Shown here in pieces: positions 33,805-62,594 of a stretch of DNA of 64,000 nt. Under the pieces are notes generated by a model. It did no database searches. It worked only from the letters and a program-made list of their open reading frames with translations, and was not told where the DNA came from. The stretch is from Candidatus Poribacteria bacterium (lineage in GTDB: Bacteria > Poribacteria > WGA-4E > WGA-3G). The position numbers and the translations under genes are program-made. Every line of letters starts with the position of its first letter. Position 1 is the first letter of the stretch. The stretch lies in NCBI GenBank assembly GCA_965242965.1, contig OZ251518.1:3424001-3488000 (forward strand), in the 5' to 3' direction.

Positions 33805-33807
33805 GTT

Positions 33808-34402
33808 GAGGGTGTTTCATAAATCCCCGTAGGAGAGACCTCCTGGTCTCGATGCAATAGGACGGCGCGCCTCCCGGGGCCGCGGCGGCAGAACCCCCCC
33901 TTCATCGTAGGGCGAGGGCCCTCGCATGCCACCCGCGCATGCGAGAGGGTTTCCCTCGCCATCGTCCGCGCAATCCAACGATCGCGGGGGACAGGCCCCC
34001 GCGCTACGAAAAAAAACGGTACTTCATCGTAGGGCGAGGGCCTGTCCCTCGCCATCGTCCCCGCGCCGAAAAAAACGTCTCTTGTTTTCTTCAGGTCCGT
34101 AGGACCTTAATGTCTATAGCACGCGCGCCCGCGAAGAACACTAAGGTCCTTTAGGTCCTTAATAGTTTTTGACATGCATCGCGTGTTTTTATTAAGGACC
34201 TAAAGGACCTTGAAGACGTAACAACACGTGCTGCTATAGACATTAAGGACCTAAAGGACCTAAAACGCCACTCTTGACGATGGTGCTCGCGGGGGAAACC
34301 CGCTCGCATGCGCGTATGGCATCCGAGGGCCACCGCGCTACGGGAACATCGAGACCGGGAGGTCTCTCCTACCGGGAAGGCATTGATATACGAAACACCC
34401 TC
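33808..34402. mobile_element. MITE-like element with REP cargo
   Basis: Ends GAGGGTGTTTCATA...TACGAAACACCCTC; flanks match only partly (agtaagtt/gttaaaat). Confidence 0.6.
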
Positions 34403-34535
34403 GTTAAAATTAAACCGTTTTAACGTATTTGACAAAAAAAACGATTAATGATAAATTAACTACAAAATTGTTGAAAAGAACGAATCATCACTAAATTAAC
34501 GCAAGAACCACAATCTCTACAGGAGACATCAACCC

Positions 34536-37238
34536 ATGACAGACATCCCGCGTCCCGAATACCCGCGCCCCGATTTTCAGCGCGGCACCGCTGAAGGCAT
34601 CGATTGGATAAACCTCAACGGCACCTGGCACTTCGCCTTCGACCCGGGCGACACCGGCGAACGCGCACACTGGTTCGCACCCGAAACGTTCCCCGATACG
34701 CCGCTCCAGATACAAGTCCCCTACCCCTGGGAAAGCCTCGCCGCCTGGGGACAAGCCGAAACCGCCGATAGCGCAACCTATCTCAGCACCAACGCCTATC
34801 TCCACCCCGAAGAAGTCACCTGCGGTGGACTCCAACGCGACGGCAATTACCGCGACGCACCGCGACATACCCTCGGCTGGTACCGAAAAACCGTCTCCGT
34901 GCCAGAGACATGGAAAACCCAACGCGTCATCCTCCACTTCGGCGCAGTCGACTGGCACGCCAAAGTCTGGGTAAACGGACACTACCTCGGCGAACACCAA
35001 AACGGATACCTCCCGTTTGAATTCGACATCACCGATGCCCTTACCCCCGGCGAATCCACTAATACAGCGGACATCATCGTGCGCGCCTACGATGCCCAAG
35101 ACCACGGCGAACAAACCGTCGGCAAACAAGCCAACTGGTATACCCGCACCAGCGGGATATGGCAGACAGTCTATCTTGAACCCAGGAACCCCACCTATCT
35201 CCAGCAGTGCCATATCACCCCCGATATCGATAACGGCACCGCTACCTTTGCCGTGAACATCGCCGGCGCAACCGCGCACCACACCCTGCGCTGGCATTGC
35301 CCTGACGCTTTGATGCACGGAGAACTCGCCGCCGCCCCGACAACCCAGTTCACCGTTCACATCCCGCCAGAACGCCTCCGGCTCTGGGATGTTGACACGC
35401 CGAACCTTTACGACGTAACCCTGGAACTCGTCTCCGATGAGACAGTGCTTGACAGAGTCAGGACCTATTTCGGCATGCGCAAAGTCTCCATCGAGAAAGC
35501 ACCCCCAACAGGCAAAGATGTCCAAAAAGACGCGCCCTACCAATACATTTACCTCAACAACCGGCCCGTCTACCTCCTCGGCGCGCTCAATCAATCCTTC
35601 ACCCCAGAAGGAGTCTATACCTTCCTGACAGACGAAGCGATACAGACAGATATCGCCCGCGCCAAAGAATTCGGGTTCAACTTCCTCCGCCTCCACATCA
35701 AGATCGATGAACCGCGCCTCTATTACTGGGCAGATAAACTCGGCATGCTCTTCATGTGCGATATCCCAAACTTCAGCACCTATACCCCGACAGCACAAGC
35801 AAATTTGGAGGAGACGCTGCGAGGCACCCTCGCCCGCGATTACAACCATCCCTCCATCATCTCCTGGTGCGTGTTCAACGAAACGTGGGGACTCGGCGGA
35901 CGCGACTTCGCCCAACTCACCGAACGGCAAGAATGGGTGCGCCAGATGTATCACCTCACCAAATCCCTAGATACCACGCGCCTCGTTGAAGATAACTCCC
36001 CGTGCCTCTATGATCACGTCGAGACAGACATCAACTCCTGGCACTTCTATATTAACGACTACGCGCGCGCGAAAGAGCACATCGCCAACGTCGTCGAACA
36101 GACATATCCCGGTTCCTCCTTCAACTATGCCGGTGACAATGTGCAAGCCGACGCGCCGCTGATTAACAGCGAATACGGCGGTATCTCCGCAGGCGCAGGC
36201 GATAAAGATGTCTCTTGGTGCTTCAAATACCTCACCAACGAGCTCCGCCTTCACCCCAAAATCTGCGGCTACATCTACACCGAACTGCAGGACATCGAAT
36301 GGGAACACAACGGCTTCATGAACTACGACAGGAGTGTCAAGGCATTCGGCTACGATGTCCGCGATATCAACGCGCTGGATTTCATCGCCATCGATTATCC
36401 GCCCGGCACCACCGTTGCCCCCGGCGACACCATCGCCATGGACATTTACGCCAGTCACTTCTCCCACAAAACCATCGAAGGGACGACGCTTAACTGGCGA
36501 CTCGACGCGCTAGATGCCACCGGGCACCTGTCCCGCGGCATCGTTTCCGGAACCCCTGTGCCTATACCCTTTCCACCCTATCAGGTAGAGAAAGTGCACC
36601 GGCTCAAATTAGAGATACCCGACATCCACCCCGCCGTCAGCACCCTGCACCTTTGGGTAGAAGACGCAACAGGTGCCGTCATTGCCCGGAACTACATCAA
36701 TTTTGAGATAGTGAAATCTAGTCCAAAAAGCGGCCCAGCCATAGGCAAAGACATAGGAAACCAGATAATCGCATGTGAATGGACATCCGAAGCCACCGTA
36801 ACCGAACAACTGTTTTCAGCCCAAGGCACAGGGTTCGTCGACATCGTCCTTCCCGCGCCAGATAGCGATGCCAAATCGCTCAAACTCATCTTTGAAGCAT
36901 CCGCCTTCAACGGCGGCGCACGCCAAACCGAACCCGAAAAATATCCCACAGATGTCACCGTTTCCATCAACGGCGTGGAGATTCAGACGATAACCCTGCC
37001 CGATTGTCCCGCGGACGCGCGCGGCGTGCTCTCTTATATCCACGGGGAACCCGGCACCTACGGCTATCTCACGCGCCTCACAATTGAAGGCAAGCAACTC
37101 GAACAAATTCGCGCCCAAAACACCGATACATTCACCATTCGATACGAAGTCAAATCCGATGCAGCACACAAAGGGGGATTCGCCCTTTACGGCAGCCGCC
37201 GTGGCCGATACCCAACCGCGCCGCATCTCCTTTTTTAA
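34536..37238 (+). CDS. glycoside hydrolase family 2
   Basis: PRPEYPRPDF, WINLNGTWHF, LHFGAVDW, SGIWQTVYLE, YFGMRKV, RLHIK, NHPSIISWCVFNETWG, SEYGG. Confidence 0.9.
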   Translation: MTDIPRPEYPRPDFQRGTAEGIDWINLNGTWHFAFDPGDTGERAHWFAPETFPDTPLQIQVPYPWESLAAWGQAETADSATYLSTNAYLHPEEVTCGGLQRDGNYRDAPRHTLGWYRKTVSVPETWKTQRVILHFGAVDWHAKVWVNGHYLGEHQNGYLPFEFDITDALTPGESTNTADIIVRAYDAQDHGEQTVGKQANWYTRTSGIWQTVYLEPRNPTYLQQCHITPDIDNGTATFAVNIAGATAHHTLRWHCPDALMHGELAAAPTTQFTVHIPPERLRLWDVDTPNLYDVTLELVSDETVLDRVRTYFGMRKVSIEKAPPTGKDVQKDAPYQYIYLNNRPVYLLGALNQSFTPEGVYTFLTDEAIQTDIARAKEFGFNFLRLHIKIDEPRLYYWADKLGMLFMCDIPNFSTYTPTAQANLEETLRGTLARDYNHPSIISWCVFNETWGLGGRDFAQLTERQEWVRQMYHLTKSLDTTRLVEDNSPCLYDHVETDINSWHFYINDYARAKEHIANVVEQTYPGSSFNYAGDNVQADAPLINSEYGGISAGAGDKDVSWCFKYLTNELRLHPKICGYIYTELQDIEWEHNGFMNYDRSVKAFGYDVRDINALDFIAIDYPPGTTVAPGDTIAMDIYASHFSHKTIEGTTLNWRLDALDATGHLSRGIVSGTPVPIPFPPYQVEKVHRLKLEIPDIHPAVSTLHLWVEDATGAVIARNYINFEIVKSSPKSGPAIGKDIGNQIIACEWTSEATVTEQLFSAQGTGFVDIVLPAPDSDAKSLKLIFEASAFNGGARQTEPEKYPTDVTVSINGVEIQTITLPDCPADARGVLSYIHGEPGTYGYLTRLTIEGKQLEQIRAQNTDTFTIRYEVKSDAAHKGGFALYGSRRGRYPTAPHLLF

Positions 37239-37239
37239 C

Positions 37240-37358
37240 GGTAGGAGAGCCCTCTTGGTAGGAGAGACCTCCTGGTCTCGACAATCCCCGGTAGGAGAGC
37301 CCTCCCGGTCTCGATGTTCGTCTCCATCACCGTAGCGCGGGGGCCTGTCCCCCGCGAT
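37240..37358. repeat. REP cluster
   Basis: Three GTAGGAGAG starts and one GTAGCGCGGGGG palindrome. Confidence 0.8.
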
Positions 37359-37433
37359 CGTCTCCGTCCAGGAAGAACCCAAACATGCAAGACTTGACAA
37401 CCTCAAGTCTGCCTAACAATAGGAACTACAAAA

Positions 37434-38510
37434 ATGTCTACAACACAATTTCTCTTTGCACGAACGCCAGACCTGGAACGGTCCTGGCCCTTTTTACACG
37501 AACAGGCAGTGAAACGCCTTGAAGCACTCGGCGTAACCACCGTGCTGAACACCACTTACCGCAGCGCGCCCATCCACGAACAAGTGCCGTTAGACGACAC
37601 CATCGGCATCGTGCACTTCGGCGGTTCACTGACAGAAGCCTGCATCGCCGCCGCACCTAACCTCAAAGTGCTCGGCACGATGACAGATAACACCGGCCAC
37701 GGCATCCCGTTTGCCGCACTGCAAGCCCGCCGCATTCCCGTGATTGAATCAACCCGAGCCTGGGCGCAATCCGTAGCCGAATGCGCCTTCGGACTCGCGC
37801 TCTCCTCGCTGCGCCGGACAGCGCAATGGCACAAACGCCTCGCCCAGGGAGAACAGCTCTGGGACTGGGAGAACCCAATATGGGGCCCGCAGAAATTGCC
37901 CGTCGCACACCAATTCTGCGATGACCCGGGTTTTGTCAACGGTGACCTCGGCACAAAACGCATCGGCGTTATCGCCCTCGGCCAGATCGGCCGGAAAATC
38001 GCACAATGGTGCAGAGTCTTCGGCGCGGACGTGATGGGCTATGATCCGTTCGTCTCCGATGCCCTGCTCCAAGAATGGGATATCCGGCGTGCTGACATGG
38101 ACGAACTCGTCGACAACGCCGAGATCATCTTCGTCGCCGTGCCGCCGACACCCTCCGCACGCCACCTGCTGAACCGCGAACGCATCTATCGGCTGCAGAA
38201 AGGCGCGCTCGTCGTCGTCATCACCCGCGCACACGCCGTCGACATGGATGCCCTACGCGAACGCATCGTCGCAGACGAACTGTCCGGCGCATTCGATGTC
38301 TACGACAAAGAGCCCCTGCCACTTGATGATGCCTTACGAAACCGCGATAACGTCGTGCATACGCCGCACATCGCCGGCAGGACAATCGATTCCAACCTGC
38401 GCGTCGCCGATATGATTGTCGATGACTTTGAGCGCGTCCTCAACGGCGAACCGCCATTAGGTGAATTGACACCCCGGTTAGCCGAAGTGAGGACATCCAC
38501 GAACCCATAA
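37434..38510 (+). CDS. D-isomer-specific 2-hydroxyacid dehydrogenase family protein
   Basis: SVAE, IGVIALGQIG, YDPF, DVYDKEPLP, TPHIAG. Confidence 0.85.
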   Translation: MSTTQFLFARTPDLERSWPFLHEQAVKRLEALGVTTVLNTTYRSAPIHEQVPLDDTIGIVHFGGSLTEACIAAAPNLKVLGTMTDNTGHGIPFAALQARRIPVIESTRAWAQSVAECAFGLALSSLRRTAQWHKRLAQGEQLWDWENPIWGPQKLPVAHQFCDDPGFVNGDLGTKRIGVIALGQIGRKIAQWCRVFGADVMGYDPFVSDALLQEWDIRRADMDELVDNAEIIFVAVPPTPSARHLLNRERIYRLQKGALVVVITRAHAVDMDALRERIVADELSGAFDVYDKEPLPLDDALRNRDNVVHTPHIAGRTIDSNLRVADMIVDDFERVLNGEPPLGELTPRLAEVRTSTNP

Positions 38511-38572
38511 TCATGAACGCGCAAGGTAGGAGAGACCTCCTCGTCTCAACTCCAATGCGCGGGGGATTAACT

Positions 38573-38828
38573 GAGGGTTTCATAAATTTATTCCTTGAGG
38601 GGAGGCGCATCGGGCCCACCACTGTAGTTCGGGAGCACCTGCTCCCGAACGGGTCAAGATCAGGCGATCTTGACCTACAGGCCTGGCGCACGAACGATGG
38701 CGAGGGACAGGCCCTCGCCCTACGTGAAGAGGCGGCGTTTTTTTCACCGTAGCGCGGGGCCCTCGGATGCCACATGCGCATCCGAGCGGGTTTCCCCCGC
38801 GACGTTGAGCGAGTTATGAAACACCCAC
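38573..38828. mobile_element. MITE-like element with REP cargo, 8-bp TSD GATTAACT
   Basis: GAGGGTTTCATA...TATGAAACACCCAC flanked by GATTAACT at 38565-38572 and 38829-38836. Confidence 0.7.
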
Positions 38829-38873
38829 GATTAACTATCCTTAAGTCCTCGCGCGACAGGAATATCAAAACGC

Positions 38874-40223
38874 ATGCCAGAAAAACCCCCAGAAAAACCC
38901 ATTAACTCGTTCATCCGTCCAGAAATCGCGGCGATGGCACCTTATACGCCTATCGTCCCATTCAATGTCCTCAGCCGCCGACTCAACAGGCGGCCCGAAG
39001 ACATCATCAAACTCGATGCCAACGAGAATCCGTATGGCCCCTCGCCGCGCATTTACCGAGCACTCGCCGATGAAGCCTACTACCATATCTACCCAGACCC
39101 CGAGAGCACCACGCTCCGGGAAGCACTCAGTCAATATACAGGGATAGACGCGGACCACATCGTCGCCGGACACGGTGCCGATGAACTCATCGATTTGGTG
39201 ATACGGCTGTTCATCACACCCGGAGATGCAGTGCTGAACTGTCCGCCGACATTCGGGATGTATCCATTTGATACCGAACTGAACGGAGGGAGGGTTGTCA
39301 CCGTGCCGCGCCGGGAAGATTTTTCGGTGGACGTGGCGCGTCTTATAAGCACCGTCAGGCACTCTCAAAACGGGGAGGGTGCCTCTACAAAAATGCCAAA
39401 GCTGCTTTTCTTGACGAGCCCAAATAATCCGGACGGTGGGCTATTAGGAGATGACGCGCTGCGCGAACTCCTCGCATTGCCCCTCATCGTCGTCCTAGAC
39501 GAGGCATACATCGAGTTTGCAGGACAGGAAACTCCCCCGACACCCGTAGCGCGGGGGCCTGTCCCCCGCGAACCTTCACGCACAACATCAGGGACAGAAC
39601 ACGAAAACCCGCAGGAAACTCCCCCGACACCCGTAGCGCGGGGGCCTGTCCCCCGCGAACCTTCACGCGCACACTGGGTCCAAGAACACGAAAACCCGCA
39701 GCAGACTACCTCGACATCCGTAGCGCGGGGGCCTGTCCCTCGCGTTCCTTCACGCGCACACTGGGTCCAAGAATACGAGAACCTCATCGTGCTCCGGACA
39801 TTCAGCAAATGGGCAGGCTTGGCCGGCTTACGCGTCGGCTACGGAATTTTCCCGCAGTGGATTCGCACCCAACTCCTCAAAATCAAGCAGCCTTACAACG
39901 TGAACGTCGCCGGCACCGCCGCCGCCATCGCATCGCTTGAAGACACCGAATACCTGATGCAGAATGTGCAGAAAATTGTCCACGAACGCGAACAACTCCG
40001 CACCGCATTAGAACAGATTGACTTTTTGGAGCCGTATCCCAGTCACGCGAACTTTCTCCTCTGCCGCGTTAGCGGCCGCCCAGCCGCCGAACTCAAGGCA
40101 GAGTTAGCGCAGCAAGGCATTCTCATCCGTTACTTCAACACGCCGGGACTACAAGAACATATCCGCATCAGCGTCGGGAAACCATCAGAAACAGAAGCAC
40201 TGCTGAAAGCACTTGCGGGATAG
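38874..40223 (+). CDS. hisC: histidinol-phosphate aminotransferase with in-frame repeat insertion
   Basis: IKLDANENPYGPS, YPDP, GADELI, SPNNPDG, VVLDEAYIEF, LRTFSKWAGLAGLRVGY. Confidence 0.93.
   Translation: MPEKPPEKPINSFIRPEIAAMAPYTPIVPFNVLSRRLNRRPEDIIKLDANENPYGPSPRIYRALADEAYYHIYPDPESTTLREALSQYTGIDADHIVAGHGADELIDLVIRLFITPGDAVLNCPPTFGMYPFDTELNGGRVVTVPRREDFSVDVARLISTVRHSQNGEGASTKMPKLLFLTSPNNPDGGLLGDDALRELLALPLIVVLDEAYIEFAGQETPPTPVARGPVPREPSRTTSGTEHENPQETPPTPVARGPVPREPSRAHWVQEHENPQQTTSTSVARGPVPRVPSRAHWVQEYENLIVLRTFSKWAGLAGLRVGYGIFPQWIRTQLLKIKQPYNVNVAGTAAAIASLEDTEYLMQNVQKIVHEREQLRTALEQIDFLEPYPSHANFLLCRVSGRPAAELKAELAQQGILIRYFNTPGLQEHIRISVGKPSETEALLKALAG
39525..39785 (+). repeat. three tandem 87-bp in-frame units, each containing a REP
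   Basis: Units start at 39525, 39612 and 39699; each encodes VARGPVPR. Confidence 0.9.
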
Positions 40224-40240
40224 GCACGTTTGGCTAATGT

Positions 40241-40400
40241 GAGGGTGTTTCACATCTCAATTCAACCTGTAGGAGAGACCTCCTGGTCTCGATGTGCCCG
40301 TAGCGCGGGGGCCTGTCCCCCGCGAGCGCCATCGTCAAGAGGATGTTTTAGGTCCTTTAGCACCTACATGTCTATAGAAAAACGTGCCGGTCCCTTTTCA
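40241..40400. repeat. truncated MITE left end plus REPs
   Basis: GAGGGTGTTTCACA followed by GTAG palindromes; no right end seen. Confidence 0.55.
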
Positions 40401-40437
40401 GGATAAATCGGTTCATTGAGTATCAAGACCGCCTGTG

Positions 40438-40983
40438 CTACGGGTCTAGATGCCGACGGGCTTCCGGAAACTGCTCGTAATACCCTTTTAAGAACTCTTC
40501 AAACTTTTTCTCTTCGGCTATGCTTCTTATGTAGTTGTCGCGCGTTTCTTTTGACAGGCGGAAGAAGATTTCGTTTTGTAAGTGGAGCCAGTCCTCATCG
40601 GAGAGTGCGTCTCCGTCAATTTCTTCTTCCAGGTTTCTGATGTGCTTGAAGGGTCTCGGCGCGTCCTCTGGCGGGATCACGCCGTCTTCATGCATCCACG
40701 CGGGTGGCCGTTCGCGTTTCTTCGCGACAGGCTGTTCCGGTCCGAGCGGCTCGGCCGCAACGTCCTCAACCTCAACAAGAGGTGTTGCAGGTCCGGTGTG
40801 TTCCGGGTGCGGCTCAGCACGCCACTCGTCACCATGCCAGTGCCCACCCGGCGCAGCCGTATCTGCCTCTATTTTCTCGATCTCCCGCTCCATCGCCTTT
40901 TGTTGCTGCACTTGTCGGTACCAGAGTGTGCCGCTGATAATGATTGCGATGAGTAGGATTCCGATTGTGATATTTTTTGACAT
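40438..40983 (-). CDS. hypothetical membrane-anchored protein
   Basis: AAGGAG SD, N-terminal TM, GGHWHGDEW motif. Confidence 0.65.
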   Translation of the reverse strand: MSKNITIGILLIAIIISGTLWYRQVQQQKAMEREIEKIEADTAAPGGHWHGDEWRAEPHPEHTGPATPLVEVEDVAAEPLGPEQPVAKKRERPPAWMHEDGVIPPEDAPRPFKHIRNLEEEIDGDALSDEDWLHLQNEIFFRLSKETRDNYIRSIAEEKKFEEFLKGYYEQFPEARRHLDP

Positions 40984-41114
40984 TGTTTTTCTCCTTTTCT
41001 TGTTTAGATATGAACTGCATGGCGAGGGACAGGCCCTCGCCCTACCTGAAGAGGCGGCGTTTTTTTCATCGTAGCGCGGGGCCCCAAGAGACCGGGCATG
41101 CCTCCGGTCCCACG

Positions 41115-42338
41115 TTATCGAACGCCTCGCGAACAACAAAAGAGCGGTGTAGCTTCGCTGCGGATGCAAAGATTCAATTCCTCTCTGGCCGCGTCAAGCC
41201 GCTTTTGCGCGCGTGCCACCGCCGCGTCTGCCTCCCTTCGTGCATCCCGGTGACGTTTCGCGCCGCCTACCCCGCCGCCTACCCCGCCGTTTATCACGCC
41301 GATGGCAAAACCGGTGATAGCACCGGCCGCAGTCCCCATCCCTGGAGCGACGCTACCTACGACGGCACCTATTCCCGCGCCCAAAATGCCATTCGCAACC
41401 ATACCTACAGTCATGTCGGTTGATATAGCACTCATATAGTCGCGCGCTCGGATGCTTTCACGATTCGCGTCTGCGGCGTTGATTTGTTCCGCTCTATGCG
41501 CCACCACGCGCAGATCGTAGCCGCAGGGACTTTCGTCATGGTGACGGTGTGCATGGTGATGATGTGCGTTCGCTTTGAAAACAGGGAGTTCGTTAAACTC
41601 CTTTCGTTCCCGCAGAATCACCTCTTTTTCAATCGCCAATTCACGTTTGACGATTTTATAGGCTTCGTAGGGGTTAAGGAGTTTCCGGGAGTTTCGATGA
41701 ACCAGTTCAGGTGTCGTCGTGTTGATGGACCGGTCGAGCGCATTAAAAAAGTCATCGACATCTTCCGCCGAATGGGTTTTCAAGGCTTCTCGCCGCGCAA
41801 ATTTCAGTTGTTCAGGTGACAGTAGTCCCCATGTCTTGAGCATGAGCGCGGTTTCGTCCTCGCTGGCAGCGAGACTGGCCACGGTATTGGCGCGGGATTT
41901 TTCGTAATAGGCAGTCTCCCTTTCATCGAGTCTCTTTCTCCGAATGAGCCAATGCTTAACCTCTTCGGGGATGTCGTCGGCATCTCTTATCTGTTCAGCT
42001 GTCCAGCCATAGAGGATGCCCCAATAGTTTTTCGGTGGCCCGGGCGCGTCGTAGAGCGCAAGGGCATCCGCTCCTTCAACAGTTTCAGTTTCGATCTTAT
42101 CCCCTGTTTCTGTCTCAAAAACCACCCTCGCATTCTTGAGTGCTTGCCTGCGTTCGTATTCGGCGACAACGGCAGCCCTATTTGTCCGCTTTATGACTTC
42201 AACTTCTTGTGCGTGTCTCTTTTCCTCGCGTGGCACCGTGACAAGATCCGTGCAAAGATAATTTGCCATCCCCGCAACGAAACTACAGATTGTGATGATG
42301 CGTATCACTGGGTTTTTCCAGAAGATGTTGAGAATCAT
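41115..42338 (-). CDS. hypothetical protein with His-rich linker and glycine-zipper segment
   Basis: N-terminal hydrophobic stretch, HHHHAHRHH, GILGAGIGAVVG...GVGGGVGG. Confidence 0.6.
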   Translation of the reverse strand: MILNIFWKNPVIRIITICSFVAGMANYLCTDLVTVPREEKRHAQEVEVIKRTNRAAVVAEYERRQALKNARVVFETETGDKIETETVEGADALALYDAPGPPKNYWGILYGWTAEQIRDADDIPEEVKHWLIRRKRLDERETAYYEKSRANTVASLAASEDETALMLKTWGLLSPEQLKFARREALKTHSAEDVDDFFNALDRSINTTTPELVHRNSRKLLNPYEAYKIVKRELAIEKEVILRERKEFNELPVFKANAHHHHAHRHHDESPCGYDLRVVAHRAEQINAADANRESIRARDYMSAISTDMTVGMVANGILGAGIGAVVGSVAPGMGTAAGAITGFAIGVINGGVGGGVGGAKRHRDARREADAAVARAQKRLDAAREELNLCIRSEATPLFCCSRGVR

Positions 42339-42356
42339 GACGCTATTTTCTCATAA

Positions 42357-43595
42357 CTACGTGTCCGATGCCAAATAGGGCGCGAGCGCAACCTCTACCG
42401 GATGCACCTTCGGAAACCATCCCACGATCTTCCGCAGCACTTCGTCTAATAAGACATCCGGACAGGAGGCACCAGCAGTGAGGACGATGTCTATGACGTT
42501 ATCAAAACCCGGCAACCAATTCTCCGTCACCTCCACCCGCTTTGTCTCCAGCACCAAATGTCGGATGCGCCTCGGATTCAGCAACTCCGTCGCATCTCGG
42601 ATAAAATAAGTCGGCAATTTTTGCGCACAGAGCTCCACCAGATGACTCGTATTAGAAGAATTATAGCCGCCGACAACCACAGCCACATCCCCACCTTCCG
42701 CAATCAGCGCGAGCGTCGCATCCTGATTCTCCTTCGTCGCATAGCAGAGCGTATCCTTAGTATCCGCAAAATGCGCCGTGAGATTCTCCTCACCGTAGCG
42801 CGCTGTAATCGCATCGCGCAGCAGATCAGCGATAGCCTGTGTCTCCGTCGCAAGCATCGTCGTCTGGTTCACAACCCCAATGCGCCTCAGATGCACATCC
42901 GGATGGAAACCCGGCGAATACCTGTCCACGAAGTTATCAAAGAAAAAGCGCGCGTCCGCCTCGCCACGAATCACCCCAGCCAACTTCTCCGCCTCCCCCA
43001 AATCCCGCACCACGACAACCGGTGCCTCCGCCTGCGCATGCGAAAACGTCGCACGCGTCTCCTCATGATACCGCTTACCGTGGACAACCACCGTGTAGTC
43101 CTGCCTGCCAATCTCTTGGCTCCGCTTCCAAACCTTCTCCACGAACGGACAAGTCGTATTGTAGGCAGAAAGTTTCACGCCGCGCGCCTGCAGTGCCGCC
43201 TCCACTTCTAACGTCGTCCCAAACGCCGGAACGATGACAACATCTGCCGGCGTTAACACATCAAACGGGAGTAACGGCTTGCCCTCCGTATCCGACAAGA
43301 ACTGCACACCGCGGTGCCGCAAATTCTCGTTCACACGCGGGTTATGGATGATTTCCGAGAGCAAGAAAATCCGTTTGTCCGGATTCTCTTCAAGAGCCTG
43401 ATAGGCTATCTCAACCGCATTCTCCACGCCGTAACAAAACCCGAAATGACGCGCAATCTTAAACCGCACCGGCCCGAAGTCCAGCACCGATGGCGACAAA
43501 TCGCGCTTACGCGCATCGCGATGCCGACGCGCCTCTTTCACAACCGAAATCACCGGACTCTGATAAAAATGAGGGAGATTAAACGTTCTTGGCAT
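42357..43595 (-). CDS. ispH: 4-hydroxy-3-methylbut-2-enyl diphosphate reductase
   Basis: FGFCYGVENA, IIHNP, TTCPFV, NQTTM, DTLCYAT, VGGYNSSNT, TAGASCPD. Confidence 0.95.
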   Translation of the reverse strand: MPRTFNLPHFYQSPVISVVKEARRHRDARKRDLSPSVLDFGPVRFKIARHFGFCYGVENAVEIAYQALEENPDKRIFLLSEIIHNPRVNENLRHRGVQFLSDTEGKPLLPFDVLTPADVVIVPAFGTTLEVEAALQARGVKLSAYNTTCPFVEKVWKRSQEIGRQDYTVVVHGKRYHEETRATFSHAQAEAPVVVVRDLGEAEKLAGVIRGEADARFFFDNFVDRYSPGFHPDVHLRRIGVVNQTTMLATETQAIADLLRDAITARYGEENLTAHFADTKDTLCYATKENQDATLALIAEGGDVAVVVGGYNSSNTSHLVELCAQKLPTYFIRDATELLNPRRIRHLVLETKRVEVTENWLPGFDNVIDIVLTAGASCPDVLLDEVLRKIVGWFPKVHPVEVALAPYLASDT

Positions 43596-43613
43596 TCTTT
43601 ATCTCATCTAAAC

Positions 43614-43797
43614 GAGGGTGTTTCATAACTCCGTTTCGGTATCTATCCCCTTGGGGGATGGGCGAATACCGATAAAAAAAGGCATTGGGCCCACCTCTGT
43701 AGTTCGAGATCGCCCGATCTCGAACGGTTCAGGATCAGGCGATCCTGAACTACAGGGGGGATGCAGTCTGACAGCCAAACGCGATCTCAAAAGCCGC
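43614..43797. mobile_element. MITE-like element with eroded right end, 8-bp TSD ATCTAAAC
   Basis: Left end GAGGGTGTTTCATAA; ATCTAAAC at 43606-43613 and 43798-43805. Confidence 0.6.
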
Positions 43798-43799
43798 AT

Positions 43800-45221
43800 C
43801 TAAACCGTATCTCCGATGTCGTTTTCCACCAAACCCCAATCCGGTTCCGCCTCCGGATCCCCAAGGGCACCATAGGCATTACGCACAACGCGACGTTGCG
43901 CATCAAACCAATCCGTATACTGCGTCGCCGGTTGCAAAGTGTCGTTTCGGGCCGCCATTAATCGCGCGAGCTCCCCTTCCAATTCAGCCGCCAATGGCTG
44001 TGTTTCAGGGCACTCTATCAGATTCGTCAATTGCAACGGATCCGCCGCAATATCATACAGCACCCGTTTTCCATCAAGCCACCGCGCATAACTGTGCGTC
44101 TTCGTGCGCACGCCGCGCCATTCGTCGCCATCGACAAGATAATCGTAAGTCGCCCCGAAATTCATCGTCAAGACAGCCTCCTGCTCCATTGCCCCCGTTT
44201 CCCCGCGCCACGATGCAGACACATCAAAACCCTCCACCGTCCGTGGCGGCTGAATACCGCAGAGCCCACAGAGCGACGGAAACAAATCTACCGGAGAAGT
44301 CAGCGTTTCACATGTCCGGCCGCCCTCAAACACCCCGGGCAACCGCATGATGAGCGGCACCTTGATAGACTCCTCGTAAGGCTGCTTCTTCGCCCAGAAG
44401 TGATGCCCCTGCGCGCCGCCCTGCGTCCCGTGGTCTGCCCCAAAAACAAGCAACGTATTCTCCACGCGCCCGGTCCGCTCCAGATACGCCATCAACTCGC
44501 CGAGCATGTCATCGACAGCCAAAATCATCGCCAGATAATGCCGATAGAGCCCCACCGACACCTCCCGAAGTGCATCCGGAACGTTCGCCGGCAGATGCAG
44601 TGCCGCAGGAAGTCTATCGTAATACGCCAGCGGCGCAAACTCATAAGGCGTGAAATGCGCCTGATGCGGCGAGAGAAACAAGCAAAACGGCGTATCCTCG
44701 TCCACGCCGTCCATAAACTCAAAAGCATAACGGTTGAGCGCGTCTGTCTCATAGCCATCCCAGCGTTCGTTACGCCAGCCGTCAAGATTCACCTTTCCAT
44801 TGAAATAATCCGTATGGAAATTATAGCCGCGCCAATGCTCAAAACCGAGCCGGTCGCGCCCTTCCGGCACGTAGTCCCCACCGCCGATTTCCGGAAACGA
44901 ACCCGTGTGCAGATGCCACTTGCCAATCCACGCCGTCCGATAGCCGTTGCCGCGGAACACATCCCCAATGCCGATTTCATCGTGCCGGGTCTTCACGAAA
45001 TTAATCAGATGCCCCGTCGTTTGCGGATGCCGGCCCGTCAGCAGCATCGAACGGTAAGGCGTGCAGACCGGCACCGTCGCAATCGCATTGGAAAAGACGG
45101 TGCCTTGCCGAGCCAGCCTGTCAATGTTCGGTGTCTCAATCTGTTTCTCGCCGTAGACAGGGAGAGAACACGCCCGCACCTGGTCTGCCAGTAAATAGAC
45201 AATGTTCGGCGTTTGCTGCAT
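43800..45221 (-). CDS. sulfatase (Cys-type, formylglycine-dependent)
   Basis: PNIVYLLADQ, TPNIDRLA, CTPYRSMLLTGR, GKWHL, DHG; GGAGGA before ATG 45221. Confidence 0.9.
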   Translation of the reverse strand: MQQTPNIVYLLADQVRACSLPVYGEKQIETPNIDRLARQGTVFSNAIATVPVCTPYRSMLLTGRHPQTTGHLINFVKTRHDEIGIGDVFRGNGYRTAWIGKWHLHTGSFPEIGGGDYVPEGRDRLGFEHWRGYNFHTDYFNGKVNLDGWRNERWDGYETDALNRYAFEFMDGVDEDTPFCLFLSPHQAHFTPYEFAPLAYYDRLPAALHLPANVPDALREVSVGLYRHYLAMILAVDDMLGELMAYLERTGRVENTLLVFGADHGTQGGAQGHHFWAKKQPYEESIKVPLIMRLPGVFEGGRTCETLTSPVDLFPSLCGLCGIQPPRTVEGFDVSASWRGETGAMEQEAVLTMNFGATYDYLVDGDEWRGVRTKTHSYARWLDGKRVLYDIAADPLQLTNLIECPETQPLAAELEGELARLMAARNDTLQPATQYTDWFDAQRRVVRNAYGALGDPEAEPDWGLVENDIGDTV

Positions 45222-45424
45222 GCTGTTTTCCTCCGCTACGCACTGATGACTTTGCGGCCCTTCGCCCGTCTGCGCGCGATAGTTTTTCTGCCCAACCGTG
45301 TGGACATCCGCTTCCGGAAACCCATCTTGTTCTTCCGTTTCCGCCGATGCGGTTGATAAGTTCGCTTCATAAGTCACATTCCTTTCTAGTTGTGAGAATT
45401 CATTTCATAAGATGCTATTAAGAA

Positions 45425-45453
45425 ATTATACCCTATTTTTCCTAATTTGTCAA
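45425..45453 (-). promoter_or_regulatory. consensus sigma70 promoter (sulfatase)
   Basis: TTGACA-17 bp-TATAAT on the minus strand. Confidence 0.75.
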
Positions 45454-45490
45454 ATTTTTTTATGAATTTGGCGCGAGAAGATTTTTCTTC

Positions 45491-45605
45491 TTGACAAAAT
45501 ATCGGTTTTTATGCATAATAGAGACATGCAAATTGTCCATCAATTTCGCGGACAAAAAATGTCTACGAAATGTTATTTGCTATTCTTTGAGAAAAATGAT
45601 ATAAT
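45491..45605 (+). promoter_or_regulatory. dnaA promoter candidates
   Basis: TTGACA-17 bp-CATAAT (45491-45519) and a second extended -10 TGaTATAAT ending at 45605. Confidence 0.55.
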
Positions 45606-45610
45606 TAAAT

Positions 45611-45904
45611 GAGAGTGTTTCATATTTCGATGCGTTCGGTAGGAAAAACCTCGGGGCTCAATTTCCGGTAGGAGAGACCTCCTGGTCTCGATGTGCCCGT
45701 AGCGCGGGGCCCCTCGGATGCCACACGCGCATCCGAGCGGGTTTCACCCGCGCGCGTTGGAGTGCACAGACGATGGCGAGGGACAGGCCCTCGCCCTACG
45801 ATGAAGGGGCAGCGTTTTTTTCACCGGCGCGCGGGGCCCTCGGATGCCACACGCGCACCCGAGCGGGTTTCACCGCAACGTTGCGCGATTTATGAAACAC
45901 CCTC
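45611..45904. mobile_element. MITE-like element with REP cargo, 8-bp TSD AATTAAAT
   Basis: GAGAGTGTTTCATA...TATGAAACACCCTC flanked by AATTAAAT at 45603-45610 and 45905-45912. Confidence 0.75.
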
Positions 45905-45940
45905 AATTAAATCTCAGGCACAATTGTAGGATATAGGCTC

Positions 45941-47302
45941 ATGCGGGAACGAACCCTTGATGAACTCTGGTCAGAAATATTCGCAGCGTTAGACGAAGCG
46001 GCTCAACACGATGTCTATCTGCGGCAAGCGACACCTCTCTCCTTGACAGCGGATGCGTTGACACTCGCGGTCCCGTCCGCGTTCGCCCAGGCCCGGATTG
46101 AGGAGCGGTTTCGCGCCGATATCCATCGGGCGTTAGCCGAGCACTTCGGCAATCCCGCGTGCACCCTCGCTTTTACCGTTGCACCGGCAGGTGAAACGGC
46201 GGATGCACCGGATGCACCTGCACAGGAGGCTACCGCGGACTCAACGCAACCGCCACACGGCCAGAGCGGGTTGAACCCCAACTACGTCTTCGACCGGTTT
46301 GTTGTCGGCTCCAGCAACCGCGTCTGCCACGCCACCGCCCTCGCCGTCTCCGAAAACCCCGGCGGCGACTATAATCCGCTCTTCATCTACGGCGGTGTCG
46401 GCCTCGGCAAAACACACCTCCTTCACGCCATCGGCAACCGCTTCTCGCACCGCCGACCGGAGAAGAAGGTGCTTTACGTCACCTCCGAAACGTTCATGAA
46501 CGAATACGTCGAATCCATTGTCAACCGCACCGCCGCGCAGGGATTCCGAACCAAATACCGCAAAGTCGATATGCTCCTCATCGACGACATTCAATTCCTA
46601 CAACGCAAAGAGGGCACACAAGAGGAGTTCTTTAACACCTTCAACGAACTGCACATGAACTCTAACCAGATTGTCATGAGCAGCGACCGGCCCCCGGACA
46701 CCCTTGAAACCCTCGAAGAACGATTACAGTCCCGCTTTGGATGGGGGATGGTAGCCGAGATTGACAGACCGCAATACGAAATGCGCGTCGCCATCCTCCT
46801 CCAGAAATGCCAAGACCAGGGGTTAGACAACATCGACGATGAAGTGCTGAGCTACATCGCCGAGGTAGTCACCACTAACATTCGCGAACTCGAAGGCACG
46901 CTCATCCGCCTCATCGCGCAAGCCACGATTATGAAAGAGGACATCAGCCTCGCCTTCGCGCGAAGCGTGTTGAGCGAGGCATCCACCGCACCCGCCTCAC
47001 TCACACCCGCGCCCCGAACCATCACCGCCGAAGGCGTTCAAAAAGTCGTCGCCGAACACTTCGGTGTCACACTCACAGATTTGCTCTCGCCCAAGCGGAC
47101 GAGAGCCCTCGCCCTCGCCCGGCGAACCGCCATGTATCTGTGCCGCGAATTGACACCCCTGTCACTCACCAGCATCGCCGAGGTGTTCCAACGGCGGGAC
47201 CACACCACCGTCATGAACGCTTGCCGACAGATGGAGAAGGCACTTGATAGTGAGGAGGAACTGAAACAAATCGTTGACATACTACGCCGACAACTCCGAT
47301 AA
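45941..47302 (+). CDS. dnaA: chromosomal replication initiator
   Basis: LNPNYVFDRFVVGSSN, YNPLFIYGGVGLGKTHL, LLIDDIQFL, TQEEFF, NIRELEG, RDHTTV. Confidence 0.97.
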   Translation: MRERTLDELWSEIFAALDEAAQHDVYLRQATPLSLTADALTLAVPSAFAQARIEERFRADIHRALAEHFGNPACTLAFTVAPAGETADAPDAPAQEATADSTQPPHGQSGLNPNYVFDRFVVGSSNRVCHATALAVSENPGGDYNPLFIYGGVGLGKTHLLHAIGNRFSHRRPEKKVLYVTSETFMNEYVESIVNRTAAQGFRTKYRKVDMLLIDDIQFLQRKEGTQEEFFNTFNELHMNSNQIVMSSDRPPDTLETLEERLQSRFGWGMVAEIDRPQYEMRVAILLQKCQDQGLDNIDDEVLSYIAEVVTTNIRELEGTLIRLIAQATIMKEDISLAFARSVLSEASTAPASLTPAPRTITAEGVQKVVAEHFGVTLTDLLSPKRTRALALARRTAMYLCRELTPLSLTSIAEVFQRRDHTTVMNACRQMEKALDSEEELKQIVDILRRQLR

Positions 47303-61911: not shown

Positions 61912-62594
61912 GAGGGTGTTTCATAACTTCACCGTAGGGCGAGGGCCTGTCCCTCGCCATCGCTCGCGCAATCGAACGTTCGCGGGGGACAGGCCCCCGC
62001 GCTACGGGCCAGGGATGGGTTCTCCTCAAGGTCCGTAGGACCTTAATGTCTATAGCATACGTGGCTCGCCAATTCCTCAAGGTCCTTTAGGTCCTTAATG
62101 TTTTCTGCTGCTTATTAAGGACCTAAAGGCCCTTAGCGTTTTTTTCGTCGGCGGGTTTCTATAGACATGCAGGACCTAAAGGCCCTGAAGAGATTTTTTC
62201 GCGGATCGAACGTTCGCGGGGGACAGGCCCCCGCGCTACGATGAAAAAAACGTGCCGTTTACCGTAGGGCGAGGGCCTGTCCCTCGCCATGCCAATCATC
62301 TGAAGCAGGATTATCACGATTATCACGATTAGGAGCAGGATTTTCAAGATTTTCAAGATTTCACAGGATATGAGCAGGATTTACAAGATTTATCAAGATT
62401 AGCAAGATTATAGAGTCTGATGCATCAAACACCCCGTGGCCTGCCACAACCGCGCCGATGCACCAGAGACCTAATCCTGTGAAATCCTGTGAAATCCTGT
62501 AAATCCTGCTCCAAATCGTGAGAATCGTGAGAATCCTGCTCCTAATCTTGCTAAATCGTGAAAATCTTGAAAATCCTGCTCATATCCTGCTCAA
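61912..62594. repeat. composite cluster: MITE left end, REP mosaic and 9-bp-unit inverted array
   Basis: Largely an inverted counterpart of 20394-21025. Confidence 0.85.

Follow-up and report, generated by a model that had tools for sequence, protein, structure and literature searches.

Introduction

REPs/REPINs and MITEs are usually treated as separate classes of selfish DNA with separate enzymes. Bacterial MITEs derived from insertion sequences (ISs) include Correia/NEMIS, RUP, Nezha, and MITEAba12, according to two reports (PMC3733652, PMC3184786). GTAG-type REPs, BIMEs, and REPINs are characterized, in the work of Nunvar et al. (2010, PMC2817692), Bertels and Rainey (2011, PMC3116915), and Di Nocera et al. 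(2013, PMC3733652), as GC-rich hairpins headed by GTAG. In the sponge-symbiont (Poribacteria-like) genome analyzed here, from which one stretch of 64,000 nucleotides (the window) was inspected in detail, the two kinds are nested: REPs lie inside MITEs, and one is the freight of the other. This nesting is concluded from interiors that contain only REPs and from ends that match a 1.1-kb IS of sister genomes. The elements resemble IS-derived MITEs in being short and non-coding, in their multiplicity, in carrying the terminal inverted repeats of an autonomous IS together with its duplication length, and in differing in presence or absence between relatives. They differ in that only 17–21 bases per end are IS-derived, in that REP/REPIN modules of several families, not a deleted IS, fill the interior, and in that the host genome lacks the cognate transposase.

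With the GTAG repeats, as portrayed in that literature, the elements share the headed hairpins, their occurrence as singles, inverted doublets, and mosaics with conserved linkers, the largely intergenic location, and a single RAYT gene flanked by one REP family. The differences from that portrayal are that about a third to half of the copies are bounded by DDE-type inverted repeats and target duplications, that at least five abundant GTAG families accompany the one RAYT found, and that a hairpin of ~31 bases occurs inside REP loops. A literature search found no paper describing REP cargo in DDE-type MITEs. Small dispersed repeats (SDR) of Nostoc reportedly occur inside minitransposons and inside one another, as Elhai and colleagues are said to have described in Genome Research in 2008. 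Common to both systems are very small hairpin repeats nested in one another and in larger non-autonomous transposons. The Nostoc repeats belong to another phylum and another repeat class, for which neither a GTAG head nor a RAYT link is known.

End-Bearing Elements in the Window

The end motif, GAGGGTGTTTCATA, is a 14-base core and was counted with up to two mismatches. Nine matches occur in the window against 0.48 expected, a number reached in 0 of 100 shuffles. The match at position 23210 has two mismatches and is treated as a chance occurrence because it is isolated and accompanied by no other element feature. The remaining features are listed in Table 1; they amount to two complete elements, one with both ends but no duplication, and one without a right end, in addition to the solo ends.

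TABLE 1. End-bearing features of the window (positions in the 64,000-nucleotide stretch).
Position	Strand	Feature
33808..34402	.	REP mosaic of 595 bp; left end exact (33808-33821), right end with 1 mismatch (34389-34402)
38565..38836	.	Complete element 38573-38828 (256 bp) plus 8-bp duplications GATTAACT
40241..40375	+	Partnerless solo left end (1 mismatch) leading into REP modules
43614..43797	+	Left end only; standard element truncated after ~165 bases
45603..45912	.	Complete element 45611-45904 (294 bp) plus exact 8-bp duplications AATTAAAT
61912..62290	+	Partnerless solo left end (exact) leading into REP modules

The first-pass annotation had recognized four REP mosaics bracketed by ends, three exact 8-bp duplications, and two orphan left ends. 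Both ends are found in the mosaics at 33808, 38573, and 45611, whereas the one at 43614 lacks the right end, its last 14 bases being unlike the end motif. The duplications GATTAACT and AATTAAAT are sound; ATCTAAAC, which is present on both sides of 43614-43797 (43606-43613 and 43798-43805), is indistinguishable from chance. This is because, genome-wide, the 8-mer flanking a solo end recurs within 1 kb in the inward direction in 23 of 359 cases and in the outward control in 13 of 359, and a degenerate end adjoins in approximately half of those 23 cases. The orphan ends at 40241 and 61912 are confirmed, and no partner was detected within 1.5 kb of either with up to four errors allowed.

The element at 38573-38828 is flanked by exact duplications (38565-38572 and 38829-38836), its left end lacks two bases (GAGGGTTTCATA), and its right end has one mismatch. 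Its modules are ordered as in the standard element but reversed in orientation, one REP hairpin includes a nested long loop, and the element shares 89% identity with a full-length copy from the related genome G001. Its flanking genes are 421 bp apart here and 49 bp apart in G002, a genome of the same genus, where the spacer is not a clean empty site. The element at 45611-45904 has both ends, the left one with one mismatch, lies between duplications at 45603-45610 and 45905-45912, and is located upstream of dnaA, 36 bp from its start codon; contigs assembled from public runs of three studies pass into it from either flank. The truncated element at 43614-43797 fills the spacer between a LytB-family gene (42357-43595, minus strand) and a sulfatase gene (43800-45377, minus strand). 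The mosaic at 33808-34402 begins three bases past a 2207-aa ORF (counted from its stop codon) and has no flanking duplication (AGTAAGTT versus GTTAAAAT); the matching spacer in G002 holds a REP cluster of its own and no ends.

Ends, Target Duplications, and Empty Sites Across the Genome

In the whole genome, the end motif occurs 1026 times, of which 530 are exact, 370 have one mismatch, and 126 have two; the matches are evenly distributed between strands (514 plus, 512 minus), and the consensus of 900 ends with their flanks shows conservation up to approximately position 21. Adjacent plus/minus motifs spanning up to 3.5 kb form 319 pairs of inverted terminal repeats with a median length of 389 bp. 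In addition, 344 of 359 solo ends remain partnerless even in an indel-tolerant search. The paired units are thus small, and none of the 33 pairs of at least 750 bp encloses a recognizable transposase. The only long ORF inside a duplication-bearing pair encodes an ankyrin/dockerin protein; the unit in question is 2.9 kb long, and its 8-bp duplication is exact.

Exact flanking duplications among the 319 pairs measure 7 bp in 4 cases, 8 bp in 65, 9 bp in 27, and 10 bp in 4, whereas flanks dealt out among other pairs yielded 0.43 exact 8-mers per 319. A duplication with at most one mismatch is kept in 143 of 298 paired elements. The target is an AT-rich palindrome, ANTTAANT, with a flank consensus (900 ends) of A at −8 (55%), T at −6 (75%), T at −5 (64%), A at −4 (75%), A at −3 (62%), and T at −1 (83%). 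The AT-rich, TAA-containing 8-bp targets proposed from the window are therefore borne out, with 9-bp duplications in addition.

Empty sites with a single target copy, which had been suggested as a check, were found in both directions. The site of the window element at 45611 is empty in G002, where one AATTAAAC stands unaccompanied by any REP, and in the reverse direction an element of G001 corresponds to an empty site in the present genome (G000), with an overlap of ~10 bases; insertions thus differ between G000 and G001 both ways. At the counterpart of C1:1207547-1208006, G002 has neither element nor REP, and the target there has diverged. The family, non-coding and with inverted-repeat ends, consists of real miniature transposons.

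The Matching Insertion Sequence

An autonomous IS with the same ends, which the first-pass annotation had proposed to look for, is found in other Poribacteria genomes. In one of these (G022), seven pairs of exact ends each span 1107 bp; one of the copies, with the duplication AGATAATT, contains a 332-aa ORF. Among 79 related loci, 27 have both ends, 972–1124 bp apart, with duplications that are exact at 8 bp in 11, exact at 9 bp in 2, and matched with one mismatch in 4, all at AT-rich sites like those of the MITEs. The right end of the IS matches the element ends over ~21 bases.

IS982 elements leave duplications of 3–9 bp, and their ends start with AC. The IS found here resembles IS982 and the wider IS4/IS5 DDE_Tnp_1 group in its length of ~1.1 kb, its single ORF, and its domain, the 332-aa protein scoring 39.3 bits with DDE_Tnp_1_3 (PF13612; cut-off 27) and 26.9 bits with DDE_Tnp_1 (cut-off 23), its only Pfam matches; the duplications of the present family also fall within the IS982 range. 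The best NCBIfam match is IS982 (NF033520, an equivalog model; E = 7.3e-15), at 55.2 bits below the cut-off of 130, and the ends start with GAG, not AC. In the best 120 of 1329 relatives, the protein bears no family name from any source. On the basis of these profile matches, the protein is an IS982-like DDE transposase, and the IS is intact in other Poribacteria genomes. A DDE enzyme as the mover, as initially suggested, agrees with this domain assignment.

In the present genome, the IS is represented by a decayed remnant at C1:2371300-2371746, with fragments corresponding to residues 1–37 and 192–243 and one exact end adjoining. DDE_Tnp_1_3 has no match in the 5.70 Mb on two contigs (estimated completeness 94.7%), DDE_Tnp_1 reaches only a sub-threshold 19.3 bits, and two genomes of the same genus yielded no intact cognate transposase with the query used. 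As no intact cognate enzyme was found in this genome or, with that query, in the same-genus genomes, mobilization in trans is inferred from sister genera, and the copies here, short of a return of the enzyme, are probably stranded.

REP Cargo and the RAYT Gene

The interiors consist of GTAG-tagged REP/REPIN modules of several families, with GTAG heads beside GC-rich palindromes readable in the sequence, and the REP hairpins of varying make-up that were noticed in the window are borne out. Folded as single strands, two window elements reach z = −4.6 and −7.6 relative to shuffles. Five heads occur 2201, 1782, 556, 368, and 1171 times genome-wide. Element territory, which covers 248 kb or 4.4% of the genome, holds 669, 577, 264, 223, and 407 of these, respectively; for the abundant families, approximately 65–70% of the copies are outside elements. 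The module adjoining one of the ends (CGGTATTCGCC core) is in element territory in 79 of 86 cases (92%) and a linker in 37 of 49 (76%). The hairpin of ~31 bases is nested between REP arms in 608 of 612 copies. A single RAYT gene was identified (NCBIfam REP_Tyr_transpos, NF047646; 120.6 bits, cut-off 80). On either side of it lie GTAG-TTCGGGAGC-type doublets, a REP type also present inside elements. PF01797 has two matches in the genome, the RAYT and an IS605-like remnant, and no RAYT was found in this genome for the other four or more REP families.

Clustering of the 298 paired elements (identity ≥85% across ≥90% of both lengths) yields 12 multi-copy groups of 25, 13, 6, 5, 4, and 3 members and six of 2, each dispersed over different sites. 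Subfamilies with identical REP cargo occupy different sites with different duplications. The nested long-loop variant is missing from the largest group (0 of 25) and occurs in 10 of 13 and 6 of 6 members of the next two. The other 230 elements are unique mosaics, so that copying with fixed cargo explains only 68 of the 298. Unique elements are longer than grouped ones (median 432 versus 268 bp) and have kept duplications with at most one mismatch as frequently (111 of 230 versus 32 of 68); a rough count by regular expressions distinguishes 246 module orders among the 298 copies. The proposed two-tier system, with HUH-type REPs spreading inside or hitch-hiking on a DDE-mobilized element, holds in part, through the RAYT flanked by an element REP type and the shared-cargo subfamilies.

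Full-length standard copies have a median identity of 82% (53 matches, range 73–100%). The interior composite of a standard copy matches the genome 600–1250 times and its ends 150–290 times; because interior matches far exceed end matches, most copies of the composite spread without these ends. The elements have the mosaic make-up of BIMEs but are not plain BIMEs, since the units examined bear terminal repeats and duplications; copies of the composite without ends would qualify as BIMEs.

Proposed Mechanism and Alternative Explanations

Most probably, the elements represent one non-autonomous MITE family with IS982-like ends and REP/REPIN interiors, moved in trans, with the REPs hitch-hiking. 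Each copy possesses the outer 17–21 bases of the 1.1-kb IS at both ends, with only REP/REPIN modules between them. The transposase of the IS, supplied in trans, would bind both ends, and staggered cuts at ANTTAANT-like sites would insert the whole unit and leave duplications of 8 or 9 bp, so that the enclosed REP modules would be copied with it. The REP families, one of them tied to the single RAYT gene, also occur independently, with thousands of copies outside elements. After or between transpositions, gain and loss of REPs and recombination between similar hairpin arms would continually alter the cargo, which would explain why most copies are unique mosaics and many have lost one end. The partnerless solo ends are not predicted by this simple model; the both-ended window element 33808-34402 without a duplication and the retention of duplications in fewer than half of the pairs also stand against it, as do the missing intact transposase, the unique cargo of 230 elements, the excess of interior composite over ends, and the median identity of only 82% among standard copies.

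REPs might instead have invaded elements in place, after simpler units had landed, through RAYT-driven or other insertion, with REP-rich DNA attracting further REPs and hitch-hiking adding little. We lean against this possibility, to which the greater length of the 230 unique elements, their equally frequent duplications, and the large share of abundant REP heads beyond element territory nonetheless lend weight, as does the different REP filling of matching spacers in G000, G001, and G002. Furthermore, G002 has 64 REP-module matches to one element and yet a single exact end motif, and the REPs are therefore older than and independent of the burst of elements. The twelve shared-cargo groups at different sites, however, indicate copying as units, the two empty sites in G002 have neither ends nor REPs, no REP-free interior occurs among the 45 shortest of the 92 duplication-confirmed copies, and the CGGTATTCGCC-core module and linker are concentrated in element territory. 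A reading without any transposon, in which the end motif is a recombining module of BIME-like mosaics and the flank repeats reflect an AT-rich palindromic context, is very improbable: the partnerless ends, the excess of interior composite over ends, and the window pair without duplication accord with it, whereas the composition-keeping control gives 0.43 against 65 exact 8-mers, duplications are nearly confined to 8 and 9 bp, the same ends and duplications bound a transposase gene in other genomes, and empty sites show a single target copy.

With respect to the enzyme, IS256-family elements leave duplications of 8–9 bp (ISfinder family tables), and GAG-starting ends are compatible with the IS256/Mutator-like transposase favored in the first-pass annotation. 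That assignment is rejected and has next to no chance of being correct: Transposase_mut (PF00872) has 0 matches in this genome and is present in 6 of 14 well-known genomes in a control search, and the ISs with exactly these ends encode the DDE_Tnp_1_3 protein with its best NCBIfam match to IS982. Continuing activity, with a transposase on a replicon or strain variant absent from the assembly or in a protein too distant for the profiles, is improbable. The exactness of 530 of the 1026 ends, the insertion differences between G000 and G001 in both directions, and the estimated completeness, short of the whole genome, would be compatible with it; the profile searches of the assembly, the decay of the only IS remnant, and the median identity of 82% among standard copies oppose it. 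No listed contig from four public runs joins across the element at 45611, a weak point, since contigs break at repeats.

Implications

A wider version of the hitch-hiking explanation has three tiers across classes, RAYT-tied REPs/REPINs gaining a second route as the whole body of a DDE-moved MITE; we regard it as nearly balanced, with doubt slightly prevailing. If it applies, the MITE route would have placed a third to half of the copies in several REP families, and 47–61% for the RAYT-flanking doublet type, and the ~31-base hairpin confined to REP loops would ride along. The same ends would also bracket a host-interaction gene, the ankyrin/dockerin ORF of the 2.9-kb unit. The nesting of REPs in MITEs is extensive, involving about 650 ends and taking up 4.4% of the 5.7 Mb, and offers a concrete case in which REP spread does not depend on RAYT alone. 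A MITE can evidently shed all of its parent IS except ~20 bases per end, and annotation tools that expect a conserved MITE interior would miss about three quarters of the copies. The family thereby provides a natural system for estimating the share of REP abundance and of BIME-like mosaicism that is due to the transposition of larger carriers, and it makes nested selfish elements that shape intergenic DNA, including the dnaA leader, accessible to study in uncultivated sponge symbionts. Under the three-tier version, the REP cargo would not be accidental and may help the element to persist, since hairpin-rich, terminator-like inserts are tolerated between genes.

Ends, Target Duplications and Target Site

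The MITE family with REP cargo is real and well supported in the source genome (G000; 5.70 Mb in two contigs, 54% G+C), where every testable MITE feature was found, and its elements behave like MITEs derived from insertion sequences. The end motif GAGGGTGTTTCATA occurs 1026 times (530 exact matches, 370 with one mismatch, and 126 with two), 514 on the + strand and 512 on the - strand. Over 900 ends, conservation is 93–100% across 14 bases, and the end is recognisable to approximately position 21: T occupies position 16 in 96% of ends, C position 17 in 89%, and T position 20 in 88%. Joining each + match to the next - match within 3.5 kb yielded 319 paired elements (median 389 bp). The left flank equals the right flank over exactly 7 bases in 4 pairs, 8 bases in 65, 9 bases in 27, and 10 bases in 4, whereas 0.43 exact 8-mers per 319 pairs are expected when the right flanks are dealt to other pairs with the AT-rich composition kept. 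Flanking 8-mers are duplicated far more often than chance genome-wide. The outer flank of the 900 ends reads A (55%) N T (75%) T (64%) A (75%) A (62%) N T (83%), and the target is palindromic, with ANTTAANT-like sites; A at position -9 in 35% of ends fits a mixture of 8- and 9-bp duplications.

Elements in the Window

Nine matches to the end motif (at most two mismatches) lie in the window, which spans C1:3424001-3488000, against 0.48 expected, a number reached by none of 100 shuffles. The first-pass annotation described four elements bracketed by common ends, three exact 8-bp duplications, and orphan left ends at two positions. Both orphan ends are real, three of the elements have both ends, and two have exact duplications, whereas the element at 43614 lacks a right end. 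The ATCTAAAC flank repeat taken as its duplication does not exceed chance and is unsound. Across the genome, looking inward over 1 kb from each solo end met its flank 8-mer again at 23 of 359 ends, and the outward control gave 13 of 359; a degenerate end adjoins approximately half of the 23. The elements occupy spacers among genes for glycosyl hydrolase family 2, 2-hydroxyacid dehydrogenase, aminotransferase, LytB, sulfatase, and dnaA. No Rfam family reached its gathering score in window 33000-46500, and two window elements form much more stable single-strand folds than their shuffles (z = -4.6 and -7.6). Repeated CAGGAT/CAAGAT/CACGAT-like hexamers form two arrays that face each other beside the REP cluster that follows the last solo end.

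Coordinates of elements and associated features in the window and on contig C1 of the source genome
Feature	Position	Duplication	Remark
Complete element	window 38573-38828	GATTAACT, exact 8 bp	left end short by 2 bases
Complete element	window 45611-45904	AATTAAAT, exact 8 bp	36 bp upstream of dnaA start codon
Element with both ends	window 33808-34402	none	
Left-end-only element	window 43614-43797		tracks standard copy for ~165 bases, ends at stop codon of next gene
Solo left end	window 40241		partner end absent
Solo left end	window 61912		partner end absent
~31-base hairpin	window 38760-38790, 45700-45740, 45845-45880		
Facing hexamer arrays	window 62310-62560		
Promoter-like TTGACA-N17-CATAAT	window, near 45491-45520		
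dnaA	window 45941-47302		Pfam Bac_DnaA
Gene-bearing end pair	C1:54311-57212 (L001:512-3413)	ATTTAAGT, exact 8 bp	2902 bp enclosed
Paralogue of the enclosed ORF	C1:1710276-1712048		not bracketed by ends
Two head-to-tail elements	C1:1204660-1205310 (L101:8661-9311)	ACTTAAAT, one common copy between them	
Element missing in G002	C1:1207547-1208006		
Decayed insertion-sequence copy	C1:2371300-2371746		one exact end
IS605-like unit	C1:3123891-3127127 (L002)		
RAYT gene	C1:3147502-3147963		154 aa

The Partner Insertion Sequence

Scanning of 41 related genomes for the exact end motif returned, beside the 530 copies of the source genome, 14 in G022, which belongs to another genus of the same family, and 1–5 in eight others. 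The 14 motifs of G022 form seven pairs, each 1107 bp across. In one of these copies (L004), the ends agree perfectly over 17 bases, the flanks carry the duplication AGATAATT, and the interior holds a single ORF. The L004 protein, searched as 332 aa from an inner ATG, matches Pfam DDE_Tnp_1_3 (39.3 bits, cut-off 27) and DDE_Tnp_1 (26.9 bits, cut-off 23). Its top NCBIfam match is IS982, and the partner of the elements is IS982-like, yet the 55.2 bits of its protein fall far under the NCBIfam cut-off of 130; no source gives the protein a family name among the best 120 of 1329 relatives. The IS256/Mutator-like transposase favoured in the first-pass annotation is rejected, as a profile search of the whole source genome with Transposase_mut (PF00872) gave no match and the insertion sequence with matching ends encodes DDE_Tnp_1_3.

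Among one genome per prokaryotic species, 79 loci encode relatives of the L004 protein, nearly all in Poribacteria, together with five Chloroflexota-type records at 39–41% identity. Both ends lie 972–1124 bp apart at 27 of the 79 loci, with 11 exact 8-bp duplications, 2 exact 9-bp duplications, and 4 with one mismatch; the target sites include AGATAACT, AATTATAT, and AGTTAATT, and the right end (…AAATCGTT…) matches the ends of the small elements over approximately 21 bases. By these loci, ends, duplication length, and target are alike in the insertion sequence and in the small elements, and the autonomous insertion sequence sought for the window elements is found in other Poribacteria genomes. 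In one Poribacteria assembly (loci L028-L031), the sequence to the right of L028 reappears to the left of L029, and that to the right of L029 reappears to the left of L030; these swapped flanks are the mark of rearrangements between insertion-sequence copies.

None of the 33 end pairs of 750–3500 bp in the source genome encloses a recognisable transposase. The L004 protein matches only two fragments there (residues 192-243, E = 1.1e-5; residues 1-37, E = 0.004), both of which adjoin one exact end, and the locus is a decayed insertion-sequence copy that has lost its inner part. Furthermore, PF13612 has no match in the source genome, and PF01609 has a single, sub-threshold match (19.3 bits). The same protein query finds no match in G001 and G002, both of the same genus as the source, and matches 6 of the 27 related genomes searched.

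REP Cargo and Its Relation to the RAYT Gene

No insertion-sequence DNA lies between the element ends. The commonest form is approximately 265 bp, and the standard order comprises an end, a REP hairpin of the CGCGGGG…CCCCGCG type with CTAC, an A-run, GTAG with a GCGAGGG…CCCTCGC hairpin, a linker, an inverted doublet GTAG-hairpin-hairpin-CTAC, a GGTAT…ATACC module, and the other end. This cargo is GTAG REP/REPIN material like that characterised by Di Nocera et al. (PMC3733652), Bertels and Rainey (PMC3116915), and Nunvar et al. (PMC2817692). The inverted doublet is built like the doublets on both sides of the only RAYT gene of the source genome (NCBIfam REP_Tyr_transpos 120.6 bits, cut-off 80). 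A second Y1_Tnp match belongs to an IS605-like unit of TnpB and a broken TnpA, in which a 408-aa TnpB-like ORF lies beside a Y1 transposase fragment with two in-frame TGA codons. The genome thus sets one RAYT against at least five GTAG-headed REP families, each with hundreds to thousands of copies.

Element territory, defined as the interiors of the 298 pairs of at most 1 kb together with the first 300 bases inside every solo end, amounts to 248 kb (4.4% of the genome). The five REP head types number 2201, 1782, 556, 368, and 1171, with 30%, 32%, 47%, 61%, and 35%, respectively, in element territory, and by these shares REPs lie mostly outside elements; an end-adjacent module core and a linker fall in it at 92% (79/86) and 76% (37/49). 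REP matches to one window element number 81 in G001 and 64 in G002, and none occur in G022 and in G009, another related genome. Since REPs are present in G001 and G002 and only one exact end motif occurs in G002, REPs are older than the element burst and independent of it.

Copying and Turnover of the Cargo

Clustering of the 298 paired elements (at least 85% identity over at least 90% of both lengths) placed 68 in clusters of 25, 13, 6, 5, 4, and 3 and six of 2, leaving 230 singletons. Cluster members lie at different sites with different duplications, and the cargo has thus been copied as a unit. Median length is 432 bp in singletons against 268 bp in grouped elements, and a duplication with at most one mismatch is kept equally often, in 111/230 and 32/68, respectively. 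Among singletons, three kinds of end-adjacent module occur in many combinations, and one G001 copy is missing precisely the segment between two similar hairpin arms. A BLAST search with one standard copy gave 600–1250 matches to the interior and 150–290 to the ends, with 53 full-length matches at a median identity of 82%, and among the 359 solo ends 344 lack a partner, an indel-tolerant search having rescued the other 15. The lengths and pairings of singletons, the G001 deletion, the BLAST counts, and the partnerless ends point away from fixed cargo and suggest that REP-level gain, loss, and recombination may proceed within and among elements. Two REP families have hairpin arms only approximately one base apart, so module orders by regular expression and the typing of the nested-loop host arm are approximate and serve as diversity counts only.

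A hairpin of approximately 31 bases (CTCGGATGC-N7-GCATCCGAG, with a CTCGCATGC variant) takes the place of two loop bases in two REP families, and 608 of its 612 copies genome-wide lie between REP arms. This hairpin is a nested element of a third tier or else a REP variant with a long loop. Its presence in 0/25, 10/13, and 6/6 members of the three largest clusters indicates that this nested piece first entered standard copies and was afterwards carried with them.

Empty Sites and Population Data

G002 is collinear with the window, and the empty sites expected in related genomes were found in part. At 45611, G002 has a single AATTAAAC and neither ends nor REP; at the C1:1207547 locus, element and REP are both missing, and the target itself has diverged. 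The sites at 38573, where genes abut in G002, and at 43614, where an unrelated 240-bp spacer is found, are uninformative, as is 33808, where neither ancestry nor insertion is readable because the spacer is full of G002's own REPs without ends. Conversely, the source genome is empty at the site of a 199-bp G001 element, with approximately 10 bases of overlap. Empty sites in both directions place insertions in both lineages after their split.

Contigs of four public runs from four studies were compared with window 45200-46300. Contigs from both flanks run into the 45611 element in X1, X8, and X9 (three studies), so this junction is not an artefact of the source assembly; none of those listed spans the element, and because they break in the repeat they are silent on empty alleles. 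In the head-to-tail pair of L101, the shared ACTTAAAT copy shows that the same 8-mer was hit twice; the pair and a gene lie in a 3.9-kb stretch missing from G002 at the corresponding position, with a flank repeat of approximately 20 bases around the pair.

Literature Standing and Neighbouring Genes

No description of a MITE composed wholly of REP modules was found in the literature searched (Poribacteria, MITE, REPIN, RAYT, BIME). Elhai et al. in 2008 reportedly observed small dispersed repeats within minitransposons of Nostoc. The MITE review PMC10969869 lacks 'REP', 'nested', 'cargo', 'passenger', and 'IS982' as whole words outside its reference list.

The promoter-like sequence upstream of the element that precedes dnaA is conserved in G002, which is element-free there; judged by this arrangement, the dnaA leader would include approximately 300 bases of hairpins. 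No clear origin emerged from GC skew, and no DnaA box with at most one mismatch was found near dnaA.

Besides REP clusters, the gene-bearing end pair contains an ORF of 588 aa that encodes ankyrin repeats and a dockerin domain; HELGH in this ORF, read by eye, is a zinc-protease-like motif. A 73% identical paralogue is encoded elsewhere on the contig, and the unit resembles a passenger gene mobilised by MITE ends.
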